Position numbers and translations under genes: made by a program
Shown: in pieces, positions 10,228 through 33,718 of the stretch
Layout of the letters: each line of letters begins with the position of its first letter
Position numbering within the stretch: position 1 is the stretch's first letter
Origin: an uncultured virus (IMG/VR IMGVR_UViG_3300025120_000026)
Lineage: Duplodnaviria > Heunggongvirae > Uroviricota > Caudoviricetes
Virus record (IMG/VR): IMGVR_UViG_3300025120_000026
Strand: one strand, 5' to 3'
Length of the DNA stretch: 33,718 bases
Notes under the pieces: model-generated
Told to the model about the DNA's origin: nothing
Database searches by the model: none
The model's input: the letters and a program-made list of their open reading frames with translations, nothing else

Positions 10228-10656
10228 TTATACAACCTTTTCAGAATAATATACTTCATATGTATAAGAAGCATTTTCAACATAAGCAAAATGCAAATAC
10301 ACTTTACCGATATCTAAAGCATAACCATAGTTAAATATAAAATCATTTCCTTCTTGAAACACATATCCATTGATTTCTAACCACTCATTATTAGAGTTGG
10401 TTATATTATAGTCAATGCTAATAATCCGTAGAAATGTCGTATTGTTTCCAATAGTAACTACAGGAATAGTTTTGTTATCAAAGGTATCAAAAGACCCACT
10501 AACACTATCATACTCTGAAGGTGGGTCGGGTATTATATCTGTACATCCTGCTAGAGATGAACATAAGAATAATAATACTATTCCAAATTCAGTTAATCTA
10601 GTTTGTCTAGTTTTACTATTTGTAAATTCATCTAAGGTTGTTTGTCTATCAGACAT
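10228..10656 (-). CDS. Putative lipoprotein with tandem PIP-box-like motifs in its N-region
   Basis: QTTLDEF and QTRLTEF, hydrophobic stretch IVLLFLCSS, lipobox LAGC. Confidence 0.6.
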   Translation of the reverse strand: MSDRQTTLDEFTNSKTRQTRLTEFGIVLLFLCSSLAGCTDIIPDPPSEYDSVSGSFDTFDNKTIPVVTIGNNTTFLRIISIDYNITNSNNEWLEINGYVFQEGNDFIFNYGYALDIGKVYLHFAYVENASYTYEVYYSEKVV

Positions 10657-11165
10657 TATTCTTCCTCTCCTACATGTTGTTTCATCATACCATAGTATAC
10701 TTTCTTAGCAATATCAGTTTCTAAGTTATGTGCTAAGTATTGATTATCTCCTAATACAATTGCAGACTTCATTAAGTTCATCCAAGTACCATCTTCATTA
10801 GCACTTCTCCACTTGTTGATAGTTCCCCAATCTGTACCGCTCCAATATGCTTGACCAAACGGATGTGTATGTATCCAACATTTAATTGGTAACTTCATTC
10901 CTTTAAGTTGACTTGTTTGATTCTCAAAAGAAACAAAACTTGGTGTTCCAACACTAATAAATAATTCATCTTTATCATCTACTATTACTTGTATTTCTCT
11001 AGGTATATCAAACGCTTCAATAGATTGATTCCATATTGTAGTTAAGAAAACTTCTGTTGTGTTACTAGGATAGTTAAACTCTACTACATCCTTAACAACA
11101 TCCCAAATCTTTCTTATTTCTTCTTGCCATTCTTCATTCTTTATTTCTAATTCTTCCATATTCAT
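10656..11165 (-). CDS. JAB/MPN+ metalloprotease (deubiquitinase-like)
   Basis: Upstream Glu (PREIQV) and complete HxH-x7-S-x2-D motif: WIHTHPFGQAYWSGTD. Confidence 0.88.
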   Translation of the reverse strand: MNMEELEIKNEEWQEEIRKIWDVVKDVVEFNYPSNTTEVFLTTIWNQSIEAFDIPREIQVIVDDKDELFISVGTPSFVSFENQTSQLKGMKLPIKCWIHTHPFGQAYWSGTDWGTINKWRSANEDGTWMNLMKSAIVLGDNQYLAHNLETDIAKKVYYGMMKQHVGEEE

Positions 11166-11422: not shown

Positions 11423-11662
11423 TTATATTCCTCCCATTTTACTAATGATAAGGTCTTGACTATTTACAAACTCATGGTAAACTGCATGACCTGAAATAAA
11501 TCCACCTGCATGTCTTTTAGTTCCTAAAAACTCTTCACCACAAGAAGGACAAGTTACCTTTACTATTTGTGCTTGGACATAATATCCATCAGTGGATAAC
11601 ACGTTCATTACTTTATCTACTTCATCTTCTGTTAAATCATCTATATTTTCTTCATTACTCAT
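11423..11662 (-). CDS. C2H2-type Zn-finger protein with acidic N-terminus
   Basis: CPSCGEEF...HAVYH. Confidence 0.65.
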   Translation of the reverse strand: MSNEENIDDLTEDEVDKVMNVLSTDGYYVQAQIVKVTCPSCGEEFLGTKRHAGGFISGHAVYHEFVNSQDLIISKMGGI

Positions 11663-12222
11663 ATGTTCATCACCATCTTATCTATTACATTGTTATTATC
11701 GTTCCACCATCTTTGAATCCATTGAGTTGCCGCACCTGCAATTACCATGTGCATACAATTGATTCCTTCCGGTTTACCATCCCATTCTGAGCCTTGGCAA
11801 CTAAAAGAACCGTCCGGCCCTGCTAGTAAAGTATCCATCAAATTTGGGTCTATTTTGTAAGAAATTAATGCCGCATTTCTTCCTTGAGAACGTAAGTCTA
11901 ACCACTTAAGTTTAGCATCATCACCAAAACCTTGAGAGTAAACTAATCTTCTTGCAGTTAAATTGTCAGCACAACAAATTACTAAGTCATAACCTTGTAA
12001 TTGTTTCTCTACTAATACTTGATATGGGTTAGATTTTGCATTAGCAAAGACATCAACTTTGTTCATACCAAGATGACATTCACTAAAGTTTTGATATGTT
12101 AGATTCTTTTTCTCTACCTTATCATCATCAAATATAGTTACATCATATATTCCTATTCTATCTAAAAAGGATGCTAGATAACTACCTATTCCTCCTGCTC
12201 CTATTATCATTATTTTTCTCAT
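11659..12222 (-). CDS. ThiF/MoeB-family E1-like adenylyltransferase
   Basis: IGAGGIGS, DDDKVEKKNLTYQ, GMNKV, DLVICCADNLTAR; no CxxC Zn pairs; candidate catalytic Cys in GSFSCQ. Confidence 0.92.
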   Translation of the reverse strand: MRKIMIIGAGGIGSYLASFLDRIGIYDVTIFDDDKVEKKNLTYQNFSECHLGMNKVDVFANAKSNPYQVLVEKQLQGYDLVICCADNLTARRLVYSQGFGDDAKLKWLDLRSQGRNAALISYKIDPNLMDTLLAGPDGSFSCQGSEWDGKPEGINCMHMVIAGAATQWIQRWWNDNNNVIDKMVMNI

Positions 12223-15235: not shown

Positions 15236-15436
15236 TTAATATCCACCGACAACGGCAGGTACTAAGTTTACGGATTCTACAGATTCCCAGTTTACATCAG
15301 AGATAGATTCTCTTGAAACCATTGTTCCATCTACAAAGACCCAATGGGTCGGATGGTCAACAATGTGTTCAATCATTTCATCTGCATTTACTGTTAATTG
15401 TGTATGTCCTGTTTCATTCATTATTATTAGATTCAT
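15236..15436 (-). CDS. Ubiquitin-like beta-grasp protein (ThiS/MoaD/SAMP-like) with GG-Y C-terminus
   Basis: 66 aa; WVFVDG strand and terminal VNLVPAVVGG+Y match the ThiS/MoaD ending pattern; E1 and JAB genes nearby. Confidence 0.82.
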   Translation of the reverse strand: MNLIIMNETGHTQLTVNADEMIEHIVDHPTHWVFVDGTMVSRESISDVNWESVESVNLVPAVVGGY

Positions 15437-18339: not shown

Positions 18340-19818
18340 TTAAGCACCTACTCTTTCGCCAACATAGTTTAATGTCTTTTTTGCTCTAGTTATTGCAACA
18401 TAGCAAAGGTTACGTTCTTGGGCTTTAGCCGATACTGATTTAGCCATAGGATGAGGCATAACTTCAGGCTTTAGAATCCAAACATTATCTGCTTCTAATC
18501 CTTTAGCCTTATGTATAGTAGAGAAGATAACTCCTCTCTTCTTACCGTCACCGAATATCTTCTTGATGTTATCTAACAATCCTTGAACAGTACTAGTGTT
18601 ACCAGTTAGATGTAAGATACATTGTGCTTTATCTTGCATTGATACAACTGCGTTTTCTTTGTCAGCCCTTCTGAATGCTTCACAAGCAACTTCAACATGT
18701 GCGTTTAATTGTGGAATGAATTGTTCAATTCTCATTGAGCCATTCTCTGTTACTTTCTTAATAAGTAATTGTAGTGAATAACCAATGTCTCTACCTAATA
18801 CAAAGGCAGGTATACCTTGAGCGATTAGATTAAAACATTCTCCAACTAAAGGAGCATTAACTCTACATAATACTAAGTCACCAACACTAGGGTTGAAAGA
18901 AACATTAGTGTTAACTTCACCTTCAGGAGCATCTTCTCTACAAGTATATCCTTTAAAGAATCTGTTTGCTTCTGCAACTACAGTCTTAGGACATCTCCAA
19001 GTAATAGATAACTCAAACACCTTAACTTTTCTAGGTGAATCAGATAGAGTCTTGTGAAACATATCCATACTTGCTGAATCTGCCCCACGGAAACCATAAA
19101 TTGCTTGCTTTGGGTCACCAACTACAATCATTCTTCCACCGTTACAAGATTTAAGAATTAACTTTCTTTGAACTTCATTGAAGTCTTGTGCTTCGTCTAC
19201 GAATAACGTATCGTAGTGTCTAACAGGTAAATCCATAACTACAGGTAGCCAAATCATATCATCGAAGTCAACAGTAGATAAATCCATACAGTTATTGATA
19301 ATTGTAGGGAAGTAATCTAACGCAGTACTTCTATCTTCAAGACCATCAAACTCAATGTCATATTCATCAATTAAAGATAGTAAAGATTCTTTATCACTAG
19401 CATCTACTAGAGATGATTTAGATAGAGATACTAACTTAACTAGTGCAGGGGCAGATTTGTATTTACCTAATACACTGTTAATGATTTTGTATACTTTCTT
19501 GTTATCTACTTTAGATACTCTTGATTGCTTTTTGATTGCAGAAAAGCCTAGACTATGAAAAGTCATTGCTTCACAATCAGATGGCAGTTTAGTTCCTAGT
19601 TCAGTAGCAATGGCTTTGTTAAAGGCTAGAAAACCTTTACTTCCATTAACTGATTTAGCACTTTGAACTATGGTAAAAGTCTTACCTGTTCCTGCACCTG
19701 CATATACCATTACATGACTTTCGCCGTGGGCTATTTCGTTCCATATTTCATCTTGTTCTTCAGTTCCTTGTATATTATATAACGCATTTAATCTGTATAA
19801 TTTTTTATTCATCTTCAT
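18340..19818 (-). CDS. UvrD/Rep-like superfamily 1 helicase
   Basis: AGAGTGKT, DEAQD, VGDPKQAIYGFRGAD, TWRCP, STIHKAKGLEAD, YVAITRAK. Confidence 0.95.
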   Translation of the reverse strand: MKMNKKLYRLNALYNIQGTEEQDEIWNEIAHGESHVMVYAGAGTGKTFTIVQSAKSVNGSKGFLAFNKAIATELGTKLPSDCEAMTFHSLGFSAIKKQSRVSKVDNKKVYKIINSVLGKYKSAPALVKLVSLSKSSLVDASDKESLLSLIDEYDIEFDGLEDRSTALDYFPTIINNCMDLSTVDFDDMIWLPVVMDLPVRHYDTLFVDEAQDFNEVQRKLILKSCNGGRMIVVGDPKQAIYGFRGADSASMDMFHKTLSDSPRKVKVFELSITWRCPKTVVAEANRFFKGYTCREDAPEGEVNTNVSFNPSVGDLVLCRVNAPLVGECFNLIAQGIPAFVLGRDIGYSLQLLIKKVTENGSMRIEQFIPQLNAHVEVACEAFRRADKENAVVSMQDKAQCILHLTGNTSTVQGLLDNIKKIFGDGKKRGVIFSTIHKAKGLEADNVWILKPEVMPHPMAKSVSAKAQERNLCYVAITRAKKTLNYVGERVGA

Positions 19819-19849
19819 ATTATTATTTCTCCTTATTTGTATTTATCAA

Positions 19850-20305
19850 TGAGCATTATCGCTCAGGGAATGTGATAGTGGATGCTGGAAGTCTAAGGGG
19901 TAACAAACCCTTGCAGTAGGCAGAAACAAAAAAAAGAAAATGTTTTTAGACGATTAGTTGCAATACCAGCGTGAGTAGTTTGCGGAAGGATAGTAATTAA
20001 TCCTTTTTATGGGTAAACCGCAGGGGTTGGATATCGAGGTAAGATATCAATGGTTGTGAGTGTTAGGTTGAAAGGAAAGAATTAACGTACTATGCCGTTT
20101 TCCACGAAAGTCACTGAGTATCTATGACTTGATACACGTATTATATATTTACAGTCTTTATACTACTATTTTTTTTATAGCGCATAGTATCTAATTAAGT
20201 GTACTCACTAGATTAAAGACAAACTTTCTAAATATCTTTTCGGTGATGTTTCTTTTTGTTTTCGTTAGCCATAAACTAACTTTCACAAACTTACGCATCG
20301 CCACT
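19850..20305. ncRNA. Candidate structured non-coding RNA or long leader
   Basis: ORF-free with many nested inverted repeats (GCTGG/CCAGC, GTCTAA/TTAGAC, TGCGG/CCGCA, AAGGAT/ATCCTT, GTCTTTA/TAAAGAC, GGTGATG/CATCGCC). Confidence 0.3.
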
Positions 20306-20419
20306 TTTCTTATTATTGGCAAACCTTTCAGTTTTCCTAGATTGCAAGTTATCTTAAAGAGCCGCTAAGCAATATATAATTACCTTGGTCATCAATCTTG
20401 GGAATGGGATATGATTATC

Positions 20420-20760
<341 letters not shown>

Positions 20761-20960
20761 ATAATCAATCGGGATATGAAGGCAATCAATCAATGGCTTA
20801 TATTGGTACTGAATATTTACTCCTTTACTCACTAAGGCATTATAGGCATCATTAGGAATGGTTGCGCTTTTGATGTGACTGATATACCTCAATATGGTCA
20901 TGAGGGTATATAAAGGAAACCCACCCATGCGAGGAATCCACAGAATAACTCTTACCTATT

Positions 20961-21000
20961 ACCATATGGTTGTACTTTGGCAGACAACCACATTAATACT
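20961..21000 (+). promoter_or_regulatory. CCATATGG palindromic element copy 1 (right arm only) plus TATA-like box
   Basis: ACCATATGGTTGTACTTTGG then CATTAATACT. Confidence 0.7.
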
Positions 21001-21058
21001 TAATTCCCTAAATAATATTGTCAAACGGGTTGGATAACTAACTCAGAGGTGAAATAAA

Positions 21059-24037: not shown

Positions 24038-24333
24038 TCCTGTTACATAAAGGGCTAGCCCGTAACAATAGCCAAAGATAGTCATTACAAAGCGCAGTCA
24101 CTCCGATACAAGCACACTACGCCATTCACAAGTTTACTGAATACTAGTAAAACAGCAAACTCCCTGTTGGAATTGCCTTCTGTACGTGCATCACATAAGT
24201 CGAAATTCACTGTGACTATCCGAGGCTTCACACTCCTCAAACCAACAATAAAACAACTCAAAGACAGACCTAACGCTTCTCAGAAGGCTACCTGATTTGA
24301 CACGTTTTATTGTTGGTTTTGACCTTTTTTTTT
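24038..24333 (+). ncRNA. Candidate structured RNA / long 3' element ending in an 81-nt hairpin and U-tract
   Basis: TGTTAC/GTAACA, GATAGTCA/TGACTATC (24077/24213), TTTACT/AGTAAA, AACAG/CTGTT, GAGG/CCTC, and a 16-bp stem 24239-54/24304-19. Confidence 0.55.
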
Positions 24334-24358
24334 GTTATTCAAGTTTGGTTCTATTAGC

Positions 24359-24408
24359 CAAAGTATAGAACCATATGGTTGCACTTTGTAGCAATCAGAC
24401 TTATACTA
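24359..24408 (+). promoter_or_regulatory. CCATATGG palindromic element copy 5 plus TATA-like box
   Basis: CAAAGTATAGAACCATATGGTTGCACTTTG then CTTATACT. Confidence 0.75.
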
Positions 24409-24426
24409 ACTATTACTCGTTAACTC

Positions 24427-25299
24427 ATGGTTAAGCAAGATTGCATATATGAACGAACGATGACAGTAACTTATGAGCGTAAGGGTGATGCTCTCTATTA
24501 CGATGAATTTAATGATATTAAGGAAAACATAAATAGAGAGTTATATGAAAATGGTTATCCTTTAGTTAGTACTTATTCCCTTCAATCATTTGATGAATTA
24601 GATGAGTATGATTATTATCCTAAAGTAAATAAAAGAAAAGAAGAAAAATTCTTTGTTAGAACTACTTCTGAAGATGATGGCGAAATATATACATTAAGTG
24701 AGAATCATTGGAAAGACGACGCACAAAGTGTAATAACCGCAGTAAAATTTTATGCTTCGTTAAATAATTTACCCGCTCCAGTCATACAATTAGAAACAAA
24801 GGTAACTGAAACCAAGAATACATCTAGACCTACTTGTAGTTATAGAAATTTAGTTCCCTATGTTTTTACAAGTGATGATAATGATACATCTAAACTAGAT
24901 GATTTGTTATATGATGTTGTATCTAGAAACGTTGCATATAGTCAAGACACGGTTCTAAGAATTAGTGAAGATATAGATGAGGAATCTAACGAAAATAACT
25001 ATTCAACAGTAAAAACTACTCTTGAGATTGGTAAGTTACATACCACATTAACATTTAGTGTTCAATGGGAAGCCCCAGTTAAATCAACTAAGGCTAACAT
25101 TGAGCATCATTTAGTAACTCTGCCCGAATTATTAACGGCTAAAGTTATGAATGTTGTCGAAGCAATTCTTAAGGATAATTGGGATTTAGACGAAGATAGC
25201 ACTACTATTGATTGTGTTACACAGTCTAACATTAATACTCAAGCCGAGTGTTCTCCGGCGGTTATTTCCTCACTCAGGAAGACTAAAGCAGAATTGTAA
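24427..25299 (+). CDS. Acidic hypothetical protein, probably leaderless (cassette 5)
   Basis: 290 aa; no RBS; ATG 21 nt after ATAC. Confidence 0.85.
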   Translation: MVKQDCIYERTMTVTYERKGDALYYDEFNDIKENINRELYENGYPLVSTYSLQSFDELDEYDYYPKVNKRKEEKFFVRTTSEDDGEIYTLSENHWKDDAQSVITAVKFYASLNNLPAPVIQLETKVTETKNTSRPTCSYRNLVPYVFTSDDNDTSKLDDLLYDVVSRNVAYSQDTVLRISEDIDEESNENNYSTVKTTLEIGKLHTTLTFSVQWEAPVKSTKANIEHHLVTLPELLTAKVMNVVEAILKDNWDLDEDSTTIDCVTQSNINTQAECSPAVISSLRKTKAEL

Positions 25300-25307
25300 A
25301 CTTAACC

Positions 25308-25375
25308 CCCTGTAGGGTCTATCGTTAGTTAACGGTAGGCTCTGCGGGGTCTTTTTTTTATTTTTTATTTTTTTT
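25308..25375 (+). terminator. 19-bp G-U-rich hairpin plus U-tract
   Basis: CCCTGTAGGGTCTATCGTT-AGTT-AACGGTAGGCTCTGCGGGG; five G-U pairs indicate a plus-strand RNA structure. Confidence 0.8.
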
Positions 25376-25399
25376 AGCCCCTCTCCACCCAAGATAACT

Positions 25400-25431
25400 A
25401 CAAAGTATAATCTACAACCATATGGCTTTGT
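25400..25431 (+). repeat. CCATATGG element copy 6 (asymmetric, closes the array)
   Basis: ACAAAGTATAATCTACAACCATATGGCTTTGT; no adjacent ORF. Confidence 0.7.
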
Positions 25432-25801
25432 GTTTAAAAATTTTTTTTTCTTTTATTCATTATTTTATTTAAAACGTAGTGTTTTTTATTAATTTTAACG
25501 TTTTTTAATGCTAAATAACTTAATAATTATAACTAATAAAACAATTATTAAAGGGCCACTCTATTAATTAAAACATACAAGGAAACAAGCACATAAAAAT
25601 CGAAGATTTTTTGTGCGTGATAATAAATGCTAATAACTACAACGCTTATTGTGGGAATAGGAAGTTAAGAAAAAAAAAATCGCCGCTAGTGGTAAAAAAA
25701 TTCCAGCCCATTTTCTGAAAAATAAAGGGTATAACTATTTTCCCCGCATAAATTGTTTTAGGCTAGGTAATAATCCGCTTTATTATTAGGGATGTGGTAT
25801 A

Positions 25802-25939
25802 ATGAGTAAACAGAAAGAAAGATTAGTTAAAGAATTATGGACAATATTAGGGGATAACGTATATTCGCTAACAGAATCGCAAATTAGGGACTTAAAATTC
25901 TATATTTTAGAGCAATCTAATCAGGTGAGCGTTTTATGA
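25802..25939 (+). CDS. Small hypothetical protein
   Basis: Not in track. MSKQKERLVKELWTILG..., ATGA-coupled to the next ORF. Confidence 0.6.
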   Translation: MSKQKERLVKELWTILGDNVYSLTESQIRDLKFYILEQSNQVSVL

Positions 25940-26136
25940 TAGGAATTAATGCTAGTTTGTATGCAATTGATGGTGATTTAAGTCAAATGGATGAAAATGA
26001 TTTAATAAATTATATTTGTAAGACTTATCGTTTAGAACCGGATACTTTTAGGGCATTGACCACTACGGATAGATTAAGGCTTCATTGTCAATTGGTTAGA
26101 AATGATAAAATTAACAAAATGAACCTAGGATATTAG
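25936..26136 (+). CDS. Hypothetical protein
   Basis: 66 aa with GGTGA RBS. Confidence 0.65.
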   Translation: MIGINASLYAIDGDLSQMDENDLINYICKTYRLEPDTFRALTTTDRLRLHCQLVRNDKINKMNLGY

Positions 26137-26137
26137 T

Positions 26138-26365
26138 ATGTGGCAAAACGTTCTTCTGAAGAAGTGGTATCCTTACTGTAAGAAATGTAATTATGCAAAA
26201 GACCCTAACTTATCTTTAGGTAACAAAGACTATTGTAAAAAATGTAAGGCTAAAACCGAGACAGGCTATAGCAAGAATGAAAAGCGAGTTTACTTTCCCC
26301 TGACACCTAGGGAAGTTAAGTCTAGAGAAAGATTAGGGTCGCTAAAAGAGATTGATGATACATGA
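26138..26365 (+). CDS. W-tag protein with Zn finger
   Basis: Starts MWQNVLLKK; YCKKC twice. Confidence 0.75.
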   Translation: MWQNVLLKKWYPYCKKCNYAKDPNLSLGNKDYCKKCKAKTETGYSKNEKRVYFPLTPREVKSRERLGSLKEIDDT

Positions 26366-26619
26366 ATTGGCAAAATATAATTAAAACAGTTGACGGAACT
26401 AATGAAGGAATGGAATGGGGTGGAGATGGGCCTGAACCTAAAGAAGATGACCGTCAACGGACTGAAAGAGAAGAAGGAAACTATGAGAATTATATGTTTG
26501 TTTCACATAAATTAGGTTCTGTTATACATTCTCTTCAGAAATTACTGGACGGCAAGGATGATAATTATTCAAGAATTGAACTAGAGCATATTTTAGACAT
26601 AGCAAACGAAAAGAAGTGA
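26362..26619 (+). CDS. W-tag acidic protein
   Basis: Starts MNWQNIIK. Confidence 0.8.
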   Translation: MNWQNIIKTVDGTNEGMEWGGDGPEPKEDDRQRTEREEGNYENYMFVSHKLGSVIHSLQKLLDGKDDNYSRIELEHILDIANEKK

Positions 26620-26625
26620 TTTAAA

Positions 26626-26817
26626 ATGAATTGGCAAAATATACTAAAAAATAAACCTTTAGTTGCTGGACAAAATAAATTAGATAAAGATAACGATGGA
26701 GACATTGATGAAAAAGATTTGGAAATAATGAGAAAGTTTTCTTTGTTTGGTAAAAAACCACCTAAGTCCTCAGAGGTTGGTAAAGTTGATACTGAAGAAG
26801 AGGAGGAAGACGAATGA
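26626..26817 (+). CDS. W-tag protein with EF-hand-like loop
   Basis: Starts MNWQNILK; DKDNDGDIDEKD. Confidence 0.8.
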   Translation: MNWQNILKNKPLVAGQNKLDKDNDGDIDEKDLEIMRKFSLFGKKPPKSSEVGKVDTEEEEEDE

Positions 26818-27080
26818 GTTGGTTTGATATACTTAAAATAAAAAAGCCGGAAGGCAAAGAAGATTACTTAACTGCTATGTCTAGAAGGATGGGGAAAGAA
26901 CCATCAACAAAGAATTTAAGATTTGGAAATCGTAAAGAAGGTACTAGAAGTTCCACATTCAAATGTGATTTATGTGGGAAAAGAACACATGAGAGAAATA
27001 GACATGAAAGTAGCATAAATAGTGGAAGTAACTATTGTAAAAAATGTGCTAAATTTAGAGATGCTAGTAGTAGTAGTTAG
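26814..27080 (+). CDS. W-tag protein with Zn finger
   Basis: Starts MSWFDILK; CDLC...YCKKC. Confidence 0.8.
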   Translation: MSWFDILKIKKPEGKEDYLTAMSRRMGKEPSTKNLRFGNRKEGTRSSTFKCDLCGKRTHERNRHESSINSGSNYCKKCAKFRDASSSS

Positions 27081-27090
27081 GTGATTTAAA

Positions 27091-27534
27091 ATGAGTTGGC
27101 AAGATATACTAAAAGAAAAAAAGAAACTAGTTGTAGATGTAATGGAAGAAATACATAACGTCTTATCAGAATATAAAAATGTAGACCCTGAATCTTCTCG
27201 CCAATTACTTTATACCTACCGTGACCATGAAATAGAAGATATTTATGATAACTTTTCCACTGACCCTGATAAAGAAAATGGAAGAGTTGGTTTAACTTAT
27301 GAATATATGATTCAATGTAATGTTTATGATAAAGAACGAAAAGACAAGTATACAGGGGTATTATTTTCTACTTATTTAGATGATGATACAAACGAAATAG
27401 ACGAATTTTTTGAAAAGGTAATGAAATTATCTTTTTATGATGATTTAGACAGTGCTAAAGACATGGCAAACCAACTTAAATGGGATTATGAGTTGAGGGA
27501 TGGCGATTTAATCCACTATATTAAGGAGAAATAA
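27091..27534 (+). CDS. W-tag acidic protein
   Basis: Starts MSWQDILK; GGTGA RBS. Confidence 0.85.
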   Translation: MSWQDILKEKKKLVVDVMEEIHNVLSEYKNVDPESSRQLLYTYRDHEIEDIYDNFSTDPDKENGRVGLTYEYMIQCNVYDKERKDKYTGVLFSTYLDDDTNEIDEFFEKVMKLSFYDDLDSAKDMANQLKWDYELRDGDLIHYIKEK

Positions 27535-27536
27535 TA

Positions 27537-27815
27537 ATGAGTTGGAAAGATATAATAAAAAATGATGAAATACTAAAGATAAAACTAGTGACAGATAGAG
27601 AGACTGGGAAAAAATATAAGAAATGGGATGGTGGAGGTAAACCTCCTATTGGTGATAAAAAAGGTAGAGAATTGTCAGAAGCCATAAATAATGGACTGAT
27701 ACCCTATGATGGTAGTGGATTTACTCATACTAGTTCAGGTCATCAGGCTTACAAAACTGATGGACACTGGTTATGTTTAACATGTCAAGTAAAATTTGAC
27801 GGTAGTTCATTATAA
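27537..27815 (+). CDS. W-tag protein
   Basis: Starts MSWKDIIK; H..H...CLTC. Confidence 0.8.
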   Translation: MSWKDIIKNDEILKIKLVTDRETGKKYKKWDGGGKPPIGDKKGRELSEAINNGLIPYDGSGFTHTSSGHQAYKTDGHWLCLTCQVKFDGSSL

Positions 27816-27834
27816 ATAATGAAGGTGATTTAGA

Positions 27835-28230
27835 ATGAGTTGGCAAGATATACTAAAAGAAGACGGACTACCCCAAGAGTATAGTAGAAGTTTGAATGAT
27901 TTTATCAACAATACTAATATGGTCGAACCACTAAGTCGTAAAATTGAAGAAGCAAGAGGAAAAATCTTTGACAATATAACTGTTATAGAAAATTTTATTG
28001 GTAGTTATAATTTTCGCCTTCCGGCAAATAAGCAACTGGCACAAAAACACATGAAATATTTATTAGAGAATTGGAAATATTCTGACCTTGAAGATGCAAC
28101 AAATTCAGCAAAATCTATGATGGAATCAATAACAGAAGTATTGACTAATGATATGAAGGGAGAAGAAGCAAATAATTCATACGATACTACATTTCCAAAA
28201 CCCGAAACATGGGAAGTAGGAAGAAAATAA
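27835..28230 (+). CDS. W-tag protein
   Basis: Starts MSWQDILK; GGTGA RBS. Confidence 0.85.
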   Translation: MSWQDILKEDGLPQEYSRSLNDFINNTNMVEPLSRKIEEARGKIFDNITVIENFIGSYNFRLPANKQLAQKHMKYLLENWKYSDLEDATNSAKSMMESITEVLTNDMKGEEANNSYDTTFPKPETWEVGRK

Positions 28231-28243
28231 GGAGAGTATTAAA

Positions 28244-28684
28244 ATGAGTTGGCAAGATATACTAAGAAAGAATGTCTTTGGAAAAGACCCTGATGAAATG
28301 ACAGATTTTATGAATATTAGTCCTAGAATGAAAGAAGCATCTCAAATTAGAAGAGATGAAAAGACTAGAGTGGATGCATTTGAAGAAATAAAAGACCACG
28401 TATTTGAGAGATTTCTACCTTATAAAAAAACAAATCCTCAAGTATTTATTACTAGTATGGAAGTTGTAAAAGAGTTGGAAGAGGGATTGCGAGGTCTTAA
28501 CGAAAGGAGATTTAAAGCATTAACATCACGCAAAGGTAAAGCAACAGAACTATCTGAAGATTTAACAGAATGGATTGATGAGTTTAAGATATCTATGTCA
28601 ACATTTAATGATTTCTTTGAAGGAGACAATGCAGATGTTGATGCGTGGTTAAGAAGAAATAAATTTATAATTGAGGAAAAATAA
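28244..28684 (+). CDS. W-tag protein
   Basis: Starts MSWQDILRK. Confidence 0.85.
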   Translation: MSWQDILRKNVFGKDPDEMTDFMNISPRMKEASQIRRDEKTRVDAFEEIKDHVFERFLPYKKTNPQVFITSMEVVKELEEGLRGLNERRFKALTSRKGKATELSEDLTEWIDEFKISMSTFNDFFEGDNADVDAWLRRNKFIIEEK

Positions 28685-28897
28685 ATGAGTTGGAAAGATA
28701 CCATTAGAAAAGAAAAAGGTAGATGTGAAATAAATCTATGTCATGCTACTACATGTAGACATAACGAAAATAATCAATGTACTTTAGATGATGTTAATGT
28801 TAGTAGGGAAGGTAAATGTGAACAGTTTTCTACTGATAAAGATACTAATATAGATAGAGCCTTAAGACTAAATGATTTTCAACAAGGTAATGTGTAA
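28685..28897 (+). CDS. W-tag Cys-rich protein (DUF1540-like pattern)
   Basis: Starts MSWKDTIRK; CHATTCRHN....C......V....C..F. Confidence 0.75.
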   Translation: MSWKDTIRKEKGRCEINLCHATTCRHNENNQCTLDDVNVSREGKCEQFSTDKDTNIDRALRLNDFQQGNV

Positions 28898-28902
28898 TTA
28901 AT

Positions 28903-29706
28903 ATGAGTAAGTATCCTTATATTGCTGAGATTCTTAAACAAGAATCAACTGTTGATATAGAACAACAAGCAGAAGACCTCACTAATGATATGAAAACAAT
29001 TCTAGCGCAAATGCTTACATCTATAAAAGAAAATAATGCGAGACAAAAAAAGGCTTTGGATGAAAATCAAAAGAGAGAAGAAAAAAGAGATGCCGATGAG
29101 AAAGAAAGAAGGTTGAGTCCTGATGGCACTACTGCGGCAGAAGAAGCAGAAAAATTAAGAGAAAATCAAAAGAGAACTAAAGAAGAAATTTTAGCGTATA
29201 AACGAAATCTAAAAAACCTTGACGAAAAAAGAAAAAACAAGACAACTGATGATGGACTAAGAGGTAGTAAATTACAACAATTTTTAGGAACTCAAGGTAA
29301 GGAAACTAAACCTGTAAGTAATGCACAACAAAGCCTACAACAGCAACAACAAAGACAGAGAAATGTGAAAGATAAAAAAGAAAGTGAGGCCCGTATAGAA
29401 GCCGCAAGAGGAGGTTGGGAAAGAAGAAAGTTGCAAAGTGCAAAAGAAAAAGCAGAAGGAGCATTAAGAAATACTTTCGATGCGAACCAAAAGATAGCGG
29501 AAAAGGAAATGGCACAGTTTCAAGAAGATGAAAGGAAACGGAAACTAGAATCCGATAAAGCACAAGTAAAAACTATTCAAGGTAAGAGAGAGAAACAGGC
29601 AGGAAAAACAAGAGCGGCTATAGCGGAAGCGAAATATGGGAAGAAGAATGCGTCTGAAGATTCAGAAGATATGTTTTGGTTTAATCAGGTGATTAAAATT
29701 GTTTAG
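28903..29706 (+). CDS. Charged coiled-coil protein
   Basis: 267 aa, E/K/Q/R-rich; tag-like IAEILK near the N-terminus. Confidence 0.8.
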   Translation: MSKYPYIAEILKQESTVDIEQQAEDLTNDMKTILAQMLTSIKENNARQKKALDENQKREEKRDADEKERRLSPDGTTAAEEAEKLRENQKRTKEEILAYKRNLKNLDEKRKNKTTDDGLRGSKLQQFLGTQGKETKPVSNAQQSLQQQQQRQRNVKDKKESEARIEAARGGWERRKLQSAKEKAEGALRNTFDANQKIAEKEMAQFQEDERKRKLESDKAQVKTIQGKREKQAGKTRAAIAEAKYGKKNASEDSEDMFWFNQVIKIV

Positions 29707-29811
29707 AACTATACGTTCTAGATTAATTAGTGGTAATGGACTCATAGTAAAAATGGTAGTAATCATTTTAAAAATTGTTAGAATATTCACAAAAAGAACT
29801 AGGTGGATATA

Positions 29812-30021
29812 ATGACTTGGTTTGAAGTTCTTAAGAAGAAAAAGAAAAAGAAAAAGACTTCTCCTTATTCTAACCCAAAAATGAGGGCTAAAGTGGTTGC
29901 AAGAGTTAAGGCAAGAAGTATCGGTGATGGTAAAGGTGCTAATGCTTCGGGTGGATGGTCGGGTAATAAGGCTATGATTGCCGCTAAGGAATATAACGAA
30001 GAAGGAGGCCGCTACAAATGA
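29812..30021 (+). CDS. W-tag basic protein (DUF5872 N-half-like)
   Basis: Starts MTWFEVLKK; YSNPKMR...GWSGNKA...KEY...GGRY. Confidence 0.75.
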   Translation: MTWFEVLKKKKKKKKTSPYSNPKMRAKVVARVKARSIGDGKGANASGGWSGNKAMIAAKEYNEEGGRYK

Positions 30022-30290
30022 ATTGGTTTGATATTATTAAAACTAAAACAGAGGCACAAGAAAGCCTCTCAACTTGGATTGGTGAAGAGTGGGGAACTCA
30101 AACACAACATAGAGCCAAAGAAAAAGGTAAAACCCCTAAAAAAGAAAAAGCAAGAGGTAGGTATATGCCGAAGGCCACCTACAAGAAAACTCCTAAGTCT
30201 AGATTAGAATATCAAGATAGGAAAAAAAGGAAAGGAACTAAAAAGGGGAAACAACACGTTCCTACCGGAAAGAAGTTCTCGCAGAAGTGA
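30018..30290 (+). CDS. W-tag basic protein (DUF5872 C-half-like)
   Basis: Starts MNWFDIIK; QESLSTW..EEWGT...GRYMPK...KGKQHV. Confidence 0.75.
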   Translation: MNWFDIIKTKTEAQESLSTWIGEEWGTQTQHRAKEKGKTPKKEKARGRYMPKATYKKTPKSRLEYQDRKKRKGTKKGKQHVPTGKKFSQK

Positions 30291-30295
30291 TTAGT

Positions 30296-30541
30296 ATGAG
30301 TTGGGAAAATATACTTAAGAAAAATTGTGGTATGATTGGAGAAGTAAAGAAAGGAAAGGGTGAAAGACATTTCTTTAAGGATGGAACACAGTATATTGGG
30401 GAAACACATAAACATCCTGATGGGACTTTAATGAGTGGTAAGGAACATGTTGAAGGTGAAAGTAAAAAGTTATTTCATTTCTATGAATTAGATGAGGGTG
30501 CATTAAAACACCTCAGTAAAGAAACAACGGATATTGAGTAA
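30296..30541 (+). CDS. W-tag His-rich protein
   Basis: Starts MSWENILKK; GETHKHPDGTLMSGKEH. Confidence 0.8.
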   Translation: MSWENILKKNCGMIGEVKKGKGERHFFKDGTQYIGETHKHPDGTLMSGKEHVEGESKKLFHFYELDEGALKHLSKETTDIE

Positions 30542-30542
30542 T

Positions 30543-30848
30543 ATGACTTGGTTTGATATTGTAAAAAGAAAAAAACATCCTAGTTTAGAGAGAGCAGGTG
30601 TTAGTGGTTTTAGTAAACCTAAGAGAACTAAAGAAGGTAAAAAATCCCATGTAGTTGTAGTTCGTGATGGTGACAAAGTAAAGACTATTCGCTTTGGAGA
30701 AGAGGGTGCTAAAGTTGCTGGAAAACCTAAAGACGGTGAAAGTAAAAGAATGAAGTCAAAGCGTAAAAGTTTCAAGGCTAGACATGCTAAGAATATTAAA
30801 AGGGGAAAGACTTCTGCGGCTTATTGGGCTAACAAAGTTAAATGGTAA
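30543..30848 (+). CDS. W-tag basic protein of a common marine-phage family
   Basis: Starts MTWFDIVKR; KTIRFG...RKSFKARH...SAAYWANKVKW. Confidence 0.8.
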   Translation: MTWFDIVKRKKHPSLERAGVSGFSKPKRTKEGKKSHVVVVRDGDKVKTIRFGEEGAKVAGKPKDGESKRMKSKRKSFKARHAKNIKRGKTSAAYWANKVKW

Positions 30849-30863
30849 TAATGATAAAGTTTA

Positions 30864-31091
30864 TTGCCTAACGGTAGATGTGAGGAGACAAGTTTGAACG
30901 CTAAATCTGACAACTCTTGGTTTAACGTACTAAGAATGTCAGGAGCAGTTACTACAACTTCGTCAGGAACATCACCTCTATTCAATAATAAAGCCATAAG
31001 GAGAAAAAAATATGGCCGCAAAAGACAAAATAAGAAAGAAGAAGATGAGCATTCGACTAAGAGGCGGAGCAAAATTAATCGCTTCGGCTGA
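30864..31091 (+). CDS. Small basic protein with internal W-tag, start uncertain
   Basis: Internal SWFNVLR; TTG start in track; overlaps the next ORF. Confidence 0.5.
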   Translation: MPNGRCEETSLNAKSDNSWFNVLRMSGAVTTTSSGTSPLFNNKAIRRKKYGRKRQNKKEEDEHSTKRRSKINRFG

Positions 31092-32226
31092 TGCTGTTCC
31101 CTTTACTCAAGAATATAATTCTTGGAAAGCAATGGCTGAATCTGCTGAATGTACTGGTGAAAATATAGGTATGAGAGGAAGTGCAGATTCGGATATAACT
31201 GACTCAGGTACTTATAACTTATATCAAGTTACTCAGAAATCCGGTGTAATAAGAAGAATAAAATGGAATGGAGGAGAAAGCCCTAAATCTAAAGGTAGAG
31301 GTGGAGTTAAAGTTATTCAAGAATTAGAAAAAATTTCGGCTAATAGCACTGACTTAACAGATGAACAATTACCATTTTTAAAGAGGGTTATTGATGAATT
31401 AAAAATTCATAAGCAACCTGATGTAGATACAAATCCTGCAAATATTGTATTCACCGACCCCACTGAATTAAGTGCAAATGGTTCTATTTTAGAAAGAGGA
31501 AAAAAGAAAATATACGGTCATTATAGAACGAGAAACTATGCTAGATGGCGTAAAGGAAAAAAAGATAAGGATACAGGAAAAAGAGAAAATGTTCCAATGA
31601 TAAATTCGGGATGGTTTAATGAGAGTAAAGGCTTAGCAAGACCCCCTGCTTGGCAAGTATTATTTGCAGAAAATGAAGATTATAGACCCTTTGCTCATAT
31701 AGGATTATTACAAGTTTGTGAAAGAGCATATAAAACTATAGAAGACATGGAATGGGATGTAGACCCTGCTTATCCTATACCAATTACAGGGAAGAAAATA
31801 GCAGAAGAATTGTATAATAATGTTGCTAATGTAAAAAAGGAAGTTGATAGTTGGTTAGCAAATCCTAAAACTAGTGCTTTCTTAAAAACAGATGGTAACT
31901 TAGATAGGAAAGAAGCATCAGAAGCATTCAAGACTGTGGCTATTACCTTAGAAGATAATAAAGATTTACAAATTATTCAACAATATATTAAACTACCAAT
32001 AGATATAGATACTGTTTATCTTGATGTTACTCCAACTCAATGTTATAATATGGCTATGTTAAATAAAGATTATGTTAAATTCTTAAGAGAAAGAACCTAT
32101 GCTCAAAGGGTTGCTGTAAATAGAAGAAAGAAAAAGGTTGAAGCAAGACAAGCAGTAAAGGATAGACAAGCAAAAAAAGCAGGAAAAGAACCACCTAAGA
32201 AAAAAGGAGTTAAGAAAGATGTGTAA
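31012..32226 (+). CDS. Hypothetical protein with basic termini
   Basis: 404 aa; GGAG RBS. Confidence 0.85.
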   Translation: MAAKDKIRKKKMSIRLRGGAKLIASADAVPFTQEYNSWKAMAESAECTGENIGMRGSADSDITDSGTYNLYQVTQKSGVIRRIKWNGGESPKSKGRGGVKVIQELEKISANSTDLTDEQLPFLKRVIDELKIHKQPDVDTNPANIVFTDPTELSANGSILERGKKKIYGHYRTRNYARWRKGKKDKDTGKRENVPMINSGWFNESKGLARPPAWQVLFAENEDYRPFAHIGLLQVCERAYKTIEDMEWDVDPAYPIPITGKKIAEELYNNVANVKKEVDSWLANPKTSAFLKTDGNLDRKEASEAFKTVAITLEDNKDLQIIQQYIKLPIDIDTVYLDVTPTQCYNMAMLNKDYVKFLRERTYAQRVAVNRRKKKVEARQAVKDRQAKKAGKEPPKKKGVKKDV

Positions 32227-32294
32227 AGTAAAATATAAAAAAGCGAATAGTGCAAGTACTATATTGTGTCCAGTGTGTTATGAGGTAATGTAAA

Positions 32295-32459
32295 ATGAAG
32301 TGGTTTGATATAATTAAAAAAGAAGAAATGCCTCTAGTAGAAAAGGATGAAGAAGAACCACCGGAAGAACCTGTTATTCCTCCAGCCGAGAGTGAAGAAG
32401 AACAAGTTGTTCACTATATTGACCCTGAAGATGAAGAGGAAATAAACGCATTAGGTTAG
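32295..32459 (+). CDS. W-tag acidic/Pro-rich micro-protein
   Basis: Not in track. MKWFDIIKKEEMPLVEKDEEEPPEEP...NALG; GAGGT RBS. Confidence 0.75.
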   Translation: MKWFDIIKKEEMPLVEKDEEEPPEEPVIPPAESEEEQVVHYIDPEDEEEINALG

Positions 32460-32468
32460 GTTTTCAAT

Positions 32469-33125
32469 ATGGTAACAAGAAAACGCTGTCCTCTATGTAA
32501 TATAGAAAATAGAGAACAGTTTGAGAGTGAATTAGAAAATCTAATTATCACTACTGATGAGTTAGATGAGCAAATGAATTGGCCTAGTGGAACAAGTTCT
32601 AAACATCAGAGAAATCATATGGAAGGTTTTGTGAATTCTTCTAATCCTCGATGTGCTATATGTATTAGTTCTGAAAGAGCCGAAATTGAAATGCAATTAT
32701 ATGAAGCAGAAGTTACTCCAGCACAAGTTGCACATGCAATGGAATGTAGCGAAGCACAAGTTATGAGACATTTAACTAAACACTTACAACCTATCGTTCA
32801 ACAATCTGCGGCCAATATGATTGCAGTTAAAGAAGTAAATGAAATAGATACGCTTAGTAATAACATTGGAAGATTAGAAGGTAAAATAGATGAGTTGTTT
32901 TTAGAGACTGATTTAAATCCTAAGTATGTAGATTCATTAACTAAACTAGCAAAAGAGATTAGAGAGAGTTTAAAATACTTGATGGAGTTTAAAGGTAAAT
33001 TAGTGCATAAGAGACAAGATACAATTATAGTTGCACAGATGCAAGTTGTTCAAGAAGTGTTAGCACAAAATCATCCTCAAGTTTGGTTAGATATTAAATC
33101 CAAAATGCAGGAGAAGTTGCAATGA
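32469..33125 (+). CDS. Tandem CxxC-HTH-HxxxH DNA-binding protein with coiled coil (possible terminase small subunit)
   Basis: CPLC...HQRNH and CAIC...TPAQVAHAMECSEAQVMRHLTKH repeats followed by helical oligomerisation-like region. The terminase call is inference only. Confidence 0.55.
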   Translation: MVTRKRCPLCNIENREQFESELENLIITTDELDEQMNWPSGTSSKHQRNHMEGFVNSSNPRCAICISSERAEIEMQLYEAEVTPAQVAHAMECSEAQVMRHLTKHLQPIVQQSAANMIAVKEVNEIDTLSNNIGRLEGKIDELFLETDLNPKYVDSLTKLAKEIRESLKYLMEFKGKLVHKRQDTIIVAQMQVVQEVLAQNHPQVWLDIKSKMQEKLQ

Positions 33126-33577
33126 GTTGGGAATCTGTATTAAAGAATGAACCACATATAGATTGGTTTAATCATATAGAGAAAAATGTTCTTTCTAGAT
33201 TTGCAGATAAGGTTGCTCCACAAAGAGTAGAGAATAGAAAACAACAAGTAAAAAATGATGCTATAATGGCAGTTGAGAGACAGAGACAACAAGCCCGACC
33301 CGAAATGATTAAACAGTTATTTAACGAATGGATAAATAGTAATCCTAAAAGTTGGCCTAATGGAGAGGAGTTAATTTCAGCAGAAGACGCAATGCGTCAA
33401 CATGGAAATCAAATGATAAGAGATAATAAGATAGAGGGAACTATGGATAATACACCTAATGCAGTAGTAAAACCGAAAAATAATGAAACTACTATGATAA
33501 GATGGAATCTGAATGGTGGAAAAAAAGAAGTGTTTCAGGCATTAATGCGTAAGTTTCCTGAACCAAATAATAGGTGA
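33122..33577 (+). CDS. W-tag protein
   Basis: Starts MSWESVLK. Confidence 0.8.
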   Translation: MSWESVLKNEPHIDWFNHIEKNVLSRFADKVAPQRVENRKQQVKNDAIMAVERQRQQARPEMIKQLFNEWINSNPKSWPNGEELISAEDAMRQHGNQMIRDNKIEGTMDNTPNAVVKPKNNETTMIRWNLNGGKKEVFQALMRKFPEPNNR

Positions 33578-33582
33578 ATAAA

Positions 33583-33718
33583 ATGAGTTGGAAAAGTATT
33601 CTGAAAGCAACTGGGGTTGGTAAAGATGGTATGTCCGATAAGGCTGAAGAAGTTAAAGTTAACAAACCTACAGTTACATATAGACAAACAGATAATTTAA
33701 TTGGTACGGGGTCAATTG
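33583..33718 (+). CDS. W-tag protein, truncated by window end
   Basis: GGTGA RBS; MSWKSILKATGVGKDG... Confidence 0.75.
   Translation, partial: MSWKSILKATGVGKDGMSDKAEEVKVNKPTVTYRQTDNLIGTGSI

Follow-up and report, generated by a model that had tools for sequence, protein, structure and literature searches.

The record IMGVR_UViG_3300025120_000026 is a 33,718-nucleotide stretch of DNA from an uncultured tailed virus (Caudoviricetes), and this whole stretch is referred to here as the window. On its + strand, positions 26138-33718 hold a tightly packed chain of 20 open reading frames (ORFs), most of which begin with the same eight-residue peptide built around a Trp (the tag). An earlier note on this DNA, made from the letters alone, had listed 15 tagged starts and two variants. 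All 15 (26362, 26626, 26814, 27091, 27537, 27835, 28244, 28685, 29812, 30018, 30296, 30543, 32295, 33122, and 33583) were found to be ATG ORFs on the + strand, with first eight residues that match M-[SNTK]-W-x-[DNES]-[ITV]-[LIV]-[KR]. Both variants were likewise recovered: ORF 26138 begins MWQNVLLK, and ORF 30864, which has a TTG start, carries SWFNVLR six residues in. The remaining three ORFs of the chain (28903, 31012, and 32469) lack an N-terminal tag. The chain reads as follows, with lengths in amino acids (aa) and isoelectric points given as pI.

26138..26365, +, 75-aa protein with four Cys and the variant tag MWQNVLLK; its homologue in the related locus L044 begins MMNWQNILLK
26362..26619, +, tagged MNWQNIIK, 85 aa, acidic (pI 4.7)
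26626..26817, +, tagged MNWQNILK, 63 aa, acidic; sub-threshold match to EF-hand_7 (E 0.0018; 19 bits, cut-off 30)
26814..27080, +, tagged MSWFDILK, 88 aa, basic, four Cys; tagged homologue in L110 at 73% identity
27091..27534, +, tagged MSWQDILK, 147 aa, acidic; homologue in L059 is 57% identical; no Pfam or PHROG family
27537..27815, +, tagged MSWKDIIK, 92 aa
27835..28230, +, tagged MSWQDILK, 131 aa
28244..28684, +, tagged MSWQDILR (Arg at position 8), 146 aa
28685..28897, +, tagged MSWKDTIR, 70 aa, five Cys; DUF1540 (PF07561, E 1.9e-6)
28903..29706, +, 267-aa Lys/Glu-rich protein without an N-terminal tag, C terminus ...DMFWFNQVIKIV; the L044 homologue ends ...SNWFSAVRV
29812..30021, +, tagged MTWFEVLK followed by a Lys run, 69 aa, pI 10.4; phrog_17747 over residues 8-69
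30018..30290, +, tagged MNWFDIIK, 90 aa, pI 10.4; phrog_14910 over residues 11-90, a family with tagged and untagged members
30296..30541, +, tagged MSWENILK, 81 aa
30543..30848, +, tagged MTWFDIVK, 101 aa, pI 10.9; phrog_7595 (E 2.9e-35) over residues 9-101, a marine bacteriophage family
30864..31091, +, leader ORF with a TTG start, SWFNVLR six residues in, then GAVTTTS..P.F; overlaps the next gene by 80 nucleotides
31012..32226, +, 404-aa conserved protein; AlphaFold2 (AF2) model with mean predicted local distance difference test score (pLDDT) 81.6, no convincing fold match
32295..32459, +, tagged MKWFDIIK, 54 aa, very acidic (pI 4.1)
32469..33125, +, untagged 218-aa Cys-rich/helix-turn-helix (HTH) protein that heads the packaging genes; homologues in 43 loci, that in L110 91% identical
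33122..33577, +, tagged MSWESVLK, 151 aa
33583..33718, +, tagged MSWKSILK, start of a 760-aa ORF that leaves the window; the remainder was read in record G001

The C terminus of the 28903 product is, in our reading of the sequence, a putative C-terminal tag. HTH matches of the 218-aa protein were sub-threshold only (Pfam), and by its position only the protein is a possible small terminase. In ORF 29812 the tag is directly followed by eight Lys residues coded by an AAG/AAA repeat (29812-29870), and when reads were placed on the window, 29828-29866 was marked as a repeat at which contigs appear to be truncated.

A six-frame census of the window with the looser core W-x-[DNESQ]-[ITVL]-[ILVM]-[KR] gave 18 matches in 33.7 kb, 16 of them on the + strand between 26368 and 33589, whereas 200 mononucleotide shuffles of the window gave 1.28 on average and never more than 6. 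Beyond the tag, the proteins proved as unrelated as had been claimed: once the first 10 residues were cut, no pair among the 16 tagged or variant proteins matched at BLASTP E<0.1 (best 0.12). Their pI values range from 4.1 to 10.9, and the longest hydrophobic run is five residues. PHROGs and Pfam recognise almost none of them, and the Pfam matches consist solely of DUF1540 in ORF 28685 and the EF-hand in ORF 26626. The EF-hand named in the earlier note is therefore weak, being sub-threshold, and its Zn fingers are Cys patterns alone.

To separate constraint on the peptide from constraint on the nucleotides, codons were counted in a pool of 483 unique ATG-tags (window and related loci). For Leu at position 7 every one of the six codons is in use (TTA 104, CTA 88, TTG 65, CTT 35, CTG 26, and CTC 24), and codon 4 is free to encode E, K, Q, or F. 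The core motif was also found within 12 residues of the C terminus in 18 cases, against 288 N-terminal occurrences, and inside fusion proteins distant from any start codon. The use of six Leu codons, together with the C-terminal and fusion copies, shows that selection acts on the peptide, as the earlier note had supposed; conservation of DNA only, which it had named as a refuting outcome, was rejected on the codon variety and the C-terminal copies, as was conservation of RNA only. Because the motif occurs at either terminus, a translation-start element is excluded as well. An ordinary Shine–Dalgarno sequence lies 6-10 nucleotides upstream of 11 of the 15 window tags. Ser at position 2 likewise draws on both AGT (293 times) and TCN codons (TCT 17 times, TCA 6 times), which again points to the peptide. 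Since nearly all position-2 codons begin with A (AGT, AAT, ACN, and AAR), residue 2 may be shaped partly at the nucleotide level, through a preference for A at +4 and ATGA start/stop overlaps more than through any requirement for Ser itself.

Per-position statistics pick out the Trp and the Lys of the tag. In leave-one-out counts Trp3 was found in 326 of 328 cases and Lys8 in 326 of 338, the 12 other residues being Arg (six cases), Ile, Leu, and Gln, so the cleavage after K/R suggested earlier would have to be corrected to cleavage after Lys. Pro was never found at position 9 (0 of 484), although it occupies each of positions 10-16 in 25 to 49 of the 484 sequences (5-10%). This void is what a cut after Lys8 would require; a bound helix that reaches residue 9 would explain it equally well.

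The tag is a viral feature. Its codon-level pattern was found in at least 137 IMG/VR stretches; 136 loci gave 586 six-frame matches, with up to 18 per 20 kb. A looser pattern applied to five whole records gave 61 matches, all on one strand per record, and none when the pattern was reversed as a control. The same pattern gave 31 matches in 596 billion bases of cellular genomes. These were single and scattered, for the most part in frames of 8-30 codons; records with Poseidoniales in the title contributed none, and the number of matches is about what chance predicts. A host-encoded system with clients bearing the same tag is therefore unlikely and was rejected, at the sensitivity of one codon-specific pattern. 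Term look-ups in the main text of PMC5434244, PMC11706807, and PMC10160649 returned no mention of the tag.

The gene content of the window fits a magrovirus-like archaeal tailed virus, going by the description in PMC5434244. Magroviruses are tailed viruses of Marine Group II (Poseidoniales) archaea, with genomes of ~90-100 kb, an HK97-type head module closest to that of haloarchaeal tailed viruses, and a near-complete archaeal-type replication module. The − strand arm of the window (1-20 kb) has genes for PolB, an AAA+ protein similar to RFC, an ATP-dependent DNA ligase, and a helicase of the UvrD type. A ThiF-like E1 and a weak TFIIB ribbon are also encoded there. Record G001 (86,154 bases) is 99.9% identical to window positions 1-24332 and 100% identical to 33597-33718, and together the two amount to 95,418 bases. 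The island at 24333-33596 is missing from G001, and the two contig ends of that record fall exactly at its borders; the tagged-gene island is probably an assembly break point because strains differ there. Beyond the window, G001 continues with the rest of the 760-aa ORF, a 991-aa protein, a 177-aa protein, a terminase-like 478-aa protein, a 443-aa protein, and the portal (phrog_18178, E 5e-63). After the portal come a tagged 769-aa protein, a tagged 118-aa protein, an 873-aa ligase-domain protein, a 401-aa Peptidase_S78 protein, the capsid protein (SU10_MCP, phrog_24667), and tail genes. The best GenBank matches of the capsid protein are HVTV-1 and HCTV-5, at about 30% identity, and the tagged 769-aa protein had no usable match in the ESM Atlas.

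The positions of the tags were compared in three near-complete genomes: that of the window (with G001), G006 (100% complete, with terminal repeats), and G003 (also 100% complete), which carry 17, 20, and 11 tags, respectively. All 48 lie on the strand and arm of the head genes (terminase, portal, protease, and capsid), in a block that spans from upstream of the 218-aa gene through the portal–protease interval, and none lies in a replication or tail module.

Several neighbouring features of this genome were recorded alongside. The 177-aa protein of G001 (L141:385-918, −), whose gene directly precedes the terminase-like gene, carries a copy of the tag at its C terminus (...GWKDILRR); its GNAT match is sub-threshold (E 0.0069), and it has no homologue in the loci examined. 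The 873-aa protein (L140:9812-12433, −), whose gene lies between the tagged 118-aa gene and the protease gene, is conserved in 31 loci and contains a domain of ATP-dependent DNA ligases (E 1.3e-27). It adds a further ligase to the replicative enzyme encoded at window positions 8060-9619, and in three loci it contains an internal KKWKDIVKK near residue 43. Near 20 kb of the window (19800-21050) both the coding strand and the GC skew flip (about −0.2 to the left, +0.3 to the right), and the ~1.2 kb between the divergent arms holds no ORF of 60 aa or more; this region may be a divergent promoter or an origin.

Portability of the tag was examined with 1644 unique ORFs from tag-centred loci, in which 373 tagged proteins fell into 262 families, 199 of them singletons. 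Tagged and untagged members occur together in 20 families. In one of these the proteins start either at MRVGRVYPSD or with the tag and a basic linker placed ahead of MRVGRVYPSD, and in another family the tag lies between the two domains of a fused gene. Homologues of ORF 30543 were found in 38 marine phage records, and the two inspected, from Lentibacter phage ICBM2 and MW202867, begin without the tag. No Pfam family was assigned to 144 of 150 family representatives; the exceptions include pentapeptide-repeat, PAP2, and 2H-phosphoesterase-like proteins. The tagged proteins are soluble; this, the scarcity of Pfam families among them, and the mosaic make-up of the island described below are cargo-like properties. 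Among 28 members of the 118-aa head-module family (the protein at L140:13032-13388, −, and 27 homologues), some lineages have a canonical tag (MSWEDILK, MSWKEILK), and in others it is decayed (MTWDYYEEGKEF.LKE, MSWQYTLQK, MTWDYYEEGK...) or absent (MDIRKQL...).

The 404-aa protein illustrates how the tag can change its place. A leader ORF sits one frame behind the 404-aa gene in six divergent genomes (the window, L110, L022, L023, L027, and L075) and consists of the tag, a linker, and a conserved GAVTT[ST]S..P..F peptide; in L057 the leader and the 404-aa gene are fused in frame as one ORF. The overlap of the two frames contains A-runs coding for Lys (seven A in the window), and either a tagged 404-aa form arises by +1 frameshift or transcriptional slippage, or two separate products are made. 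Across relatives of the family the tag is found at the N terminus, on the leader ORF, or as a C-terminal SW...LW/ILR motif. Most members end in a second Trp motif, [KS]-[SKM]-W-x-x-x-L-W (e.g. KKSWSEMLWRD), as seen at L016, L019, L022, L023, L057, L066, L075, L076, and L121. The L027 homologue ends in a true C-terminal tag (...KSWIDILRN), and the copies of the window and L110 have a Lys-rich tail in place of the Trp motif. The AF2 model of the 404-aa protein gave no Foldseek match in the PDB at E<=0.001, and a VIA wide fold search returned a best Z of 5.1 to generic helical bundles, from which no assignment was made.

Between samples the island is a mosaic of cassettes. Contigs of four other runs cover it in pieces, and 63%-81% of them continue into unlike sequence. 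A single 3.5-kb contig, from run X8, spans the island and differs from the window at three places: ORF 26362 keeps its tag but has a different body from the very next base (213 other letters in place of 26385 to 26616), 26760 to 27833 is swapped for 48 letters with the loss of three tagged genes, and 28700 to 29704 is skipped. The joints used in this contig are flanked by 35-145 letters on both sides; those for which one flank had just 21-25 letters were dismissed as tag-only matches from other viruses.

A counterpart of the tag was found in the head genes themselves. The 401-aa protein that adjoins the capsid gene is an HK97-type protease (Peptidase_S78, E 2.9e-10) with a long C-terminal extension, and it ends ...ADMSWGDIHTLVGRRD. 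All 18 distinct tails of this protein carry [MLI]-x-W-x-[DE] 9-14 residues from the end, and Trp390 is invariant in an alignment of 11 sequences. Several lineages also encode head-module proteins of 75-82 aa that end in the same motif. The tag and the tail have in common hydrophobic-x-W-x-D/E-I. In the AF2 model the C-terminal half begins with an acidic disordered stretch; two long helices follow (pLDDT 70-86), and then a short terminal one from the Trp onward. On this model the C-terminal half appears scaffold-like, and the protein is accordingly called the protease-scaffold here. Mean pLDDT over the whole protein was 46.7. One lineage (L065 and L078) differs in that both its protease-scaffold and its small head proteins end in GGY or GGQ.

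Sites resembling the second half of the tag were also found in the protease and capsid protein. The junction between the protease and scaffold halves reads F-[DEN]-I-[LV]-K, with Phe166, Ile168, and Lys170 invariant in 11 of 11 sequences, and the N terminus of the protease reads F-x-I-L-K-S, with Ile16 and Lys18 invariant. Residues 22-28 of the capsid protein read G-N-A-L-L-K-S, with Lys27 invariant in 18 of 18. The protease domain was modeled too poorly to place F-D-I-L-K in a strand or in a linker.

What is established here is the tag itself, selection on its peptide, its portability, the fact that either terminus can carry it, its confinement to the head arm, and its resemblance to the scaffold tail. 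The earlier note had proposed a capsid-targeting tag on variable cargo, possibly cleaved, and this is the best-supported reading, on the indirect evidence of the head-arm location, the scaffold-tail motif, the x-I-L-K sites, and the exclusion of Pro. We give even chances to a label of this kind that loads proteins into the capsid by docking and is then clipped, like the capsid targeting sequence (CTS) of phage T4. M-x-W-x-[D/N/E]-[I/V]-[L/I]-K would then be a portable terminal address label of magrovirus-like archaeal tailed viruses. Its first half (hydrophobic-x-W-x-D/E-I) would copy the C-terminal tail of the virus's own prohead protease-scaffold and would dock the tagged protein at the scaffold-tail site inside the assembling procapsid, most likely at the inner face or N-arm of the capsid protein. 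The second half ([I/L]-L-K, with Pro never next) would serve as a site for the HK97-type S78 head protease, by which the label would be clipped off. The same protease would also cut the capsid protein, after N-A-L-L-K, and would cut itself at two sites, after F-S-I-L-K and after F-D-I-L-K. The freed cargo, which is hypervariable and made up mostly of small soluble proteins (acidic, basic, or Cys-rich) with a few large ones among them, would remain in the head with the DNA and enter the host at infection. Docking, receptor, cleavage, packaging, and ejection of the tagged proteins are all steps that we infer. A prediction of the complex from the alignments of the capsid protein and the tag (as monomer and peptide) scored 0.00 against a mark of 0.32, which is evidence neither way.

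A bolder version, which we hold only tentatively and consider rather doubtful, is a two-part code in which W-x-D-I would dock by imitation of the scaffold tail and I-L-K would release through a Lys-specific head protease. Hundreds of interchangeable effector families, presumably for anti-defence or host take-over, would be injected by this route. The tags would double as crossover points because every cassette starts with the same 24 nucleotides.

A number of observations weigh against capsid loading by docking and clipping. After W-x-D-I the tail continues with H/N/A-x-hydrophobic and the tag with L-K, consistently. Residue 2 shows no co-variation between the two, and genomes with an M-D-W tail show no preference for D in their tags. 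The x-I-L-K sites are short, in a proteome rich in Ile, Leu, and Lys, and the F-D-I-L-K of the junction may simply be a structural strand. With 326 Lys to 6 Arg, position 8 is more exacting than a cut after any basic P1 residue calls for, and it could reflect Lys chemistry instead. The haloarchaeal virus HVTV-1, the nearest cultured kin by capsid protein, has neither N-terminal W tags nor a matching protease tail in the 28 kb of its head region that were inspected. One tagged protein belongs to the PAP2 family, the members of which are usually membrane enzymes. The 118-aa family persists while its tag decays in some lineages, so the tag is dispensable for that protein. Finally, 11-20 cargo species per genome, some of 760-806 aa, would be a heavy load for a head that holds ~95 kb.

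Alternatively, the tag would be a docking peptide that gathers many late accessory proteins at a single place, or delivers them to a single machine, by way of a hub other than the capsid, such as a host or viral chaperone, a polymerase clamp, a proteasome/unfoldase, or a membrane site, with the tail of the protease-scaffold resembling the tag because it uses the same hub. The tag does look like a short linear motif: it is terminal and portable, is found at either end, and has a Pro-rich, charged linker after it. The lack of co-variation at residue 2 and the loss of the tag from some lineages of a conserved head-module protein fit a hub as well. We nevertheless consider a hub unlikely, though worth keeping in mind, because all 48 tags are on the packaging/head arm and, cargo aside, conserved carriers are limited to the protease-scaffold, a few small helical proteins of the head module, and the 404-aa protein beside the terminase genes; moreover, no cellular genome carries the tag above chance. 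Less probable again is a processing signal alone, that is, a propeptide removed by S78 or another Lys-specific protease, by which late proteins would be switched at head maturation. This would account for tag-like x-I-L-K at three places in the protease and capsid protein, for the absence of Pro at position 9, and for the near-invariant Lys8. HK97-type proteases act inside the closed procapsid, however, so the substrates would have to be inside anyway, and an eight-residue propeptide is unlikely to mask activity across 262 unrelated families. C-terminal copies with only 1-6 residues after them would gain little from clipping, and Trp3, six residues ahead of the putative cut, is nearly invariant, which suggests that more is recognised than a protease subsite alone.

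Two further explanations were weighed. The 24 nucleotides might be mainly a DNA or RNA element, either for late-gene initiation or as an operator, or a microhomology for cassette recombination, with the peptide as a by-product. The mostly A-initial codons at position 2 and the 293 AGT codons for Ser against 23 TCT/TCA point that way, and three window genes share 22 identical nucleotides and a similar ribosome-binding site. The fall of the island between the two ends of the near-identical record G001 and the exchange of the body of ORF 26362 exactly after its tag also count in favour of this explanation. Six Leu codons at position 7, a free codon 4, and copies at C termini and inside fusions speak against such an element; the ordinary Shine–Dalgarno sequences at 11 of 15 window tags mean that no special initiation element is needed, and cassette exchange at the tags is a plausible side effect that cannot explain selection on the peptide. 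We therefore judge this explanation to be very improbable. Hardly any weight, and slightly less again, is given to Lys8 as the acceptor of a viral ubiquitin-like (Ubl) conjugation system that would mark proteins for modification, an idea raised in the earlier note for which no specific support was obtained. The strong excess of Lys over Arg would suit it, as would a ThiF family protein in the window (11659-12222, −; Pfam E 4.6e-18), with ThiF homologues in two other complete genomes, and the lineage with GG-Y/GG-Q ends, which resemble unprocessed Ubl proteins. On the other hand, position 8 is not Lys in 12 of 338 tags and is Arg in 2 of the 15 window tags, the motif also serves as a C-terminal tail, and most protease-scaffold tails lack GG. 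The E1 gene lies on the other arm and strand, nothing ties the tagged genes to it, and Pfam recognises neither the JAMM-motif protein nor the 66-aa ORF described next.

Two small ORFs on the − strand of the window were noted in connection with ThiF. That at 10656-11165 contains an H-x-H-x7-S-x2-D motif (JAMM-like), and the 66-aa ORF at 15236-15436 ends ...VVGGY, as an unprocessed Ubl protein would. The JAMM and Ubl labels come from these motifs, and Pfam does not confirm either.

Should capsid loading by docking and clipping be correct, it would give a location (inside the virion) and a timing (delivery at infection) to about one gene in six, and likely anti-defence or take-over effectors would be singled out among unannotated genes. 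Magrovirus hosts are among the most abundant archaea of the surface ocean. To our knowledge neither a magrovirus nor a host has been cultivated, and for most genes of magroviruses no function is known. On the same condition, T4-like loading of cargo would have evolved independently in archaeal viruses with an HK97-type protease, and an eight-residue dock-and-release peptide for an HK97-fold shell would be a possible tool to pack proteins into capsids.

The closest known system is the CTS of T4 (IPI-III and Alt), which is likewise one short N-terminal peptide on unrelated, fast-evolving small proteins. In T4 the prohead protease is gp21, and its site is cut after Glu. Unlike T4, the magrovirus has an HK97-type S78 protease, with no T4-like head protease among its PHROG and Pfam matches, and its putative cut falls after Lys. 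The magrovirus tag also occurs at C termini, mimics the tail of the protease-scaffold, and has 11-20 carriers per genome, in a virus with an archaeal host. Because the protease is of HK97 type and the sequence is unlike that of the CTS, the tag lies outside the T4 family. PMC3012670 describes how the T4 peptide loads internal proteins onto the scaffolding core, after which the prohead protease cuts it off. The proteins so loaded, some of them anti-restriction proteins, are injected, and the CTS is the sole conserved part of a diverse defence set.

Other systems share parts of the arrangement. The tail of HK97 protease reportedly suffices for encapsidation (Duda, Oh and Hendrix, 2013). The magrovirus [MLI]-x-W-x-[DE], at the C terminus of a protease fused to a helical scaffold-like half, resembles the signals of the P22 and 80alpha scaffolds and of HK97 gp4. 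Those signals are private to the scaffold or protease, whereas in the magrovirus a near-copy is spread, N-terminally, to hundreds of unrelated genes. Encapsulin cargo-loading peptides are also short, terminal, and carried by unrelated cargo, and they bind the inner face of an HK97-fold shell; encapsulins, however, are cellular compartments without protease, portal, or DNA, and their peptides are unclipped and unrelated in sequence to the magrovirus tag. The giant phages SPN3US and phiKZ, in which the head protease family is T4-like, have long propeptides and not one portable conserved tag. According to the abstracts of PMC7411985 and PMC10052503, the prohead protease of these phages cuts many head-internal proteins at a short motif that they have in common, and the proteins are ejected into the host. 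Contacts between scaffold termini and the N-arm helix of the capsid protein, at which the magrovirus tag might dock, are described for P22, 80alpha, and phi29 in PMC12749128 and PMC10275583.

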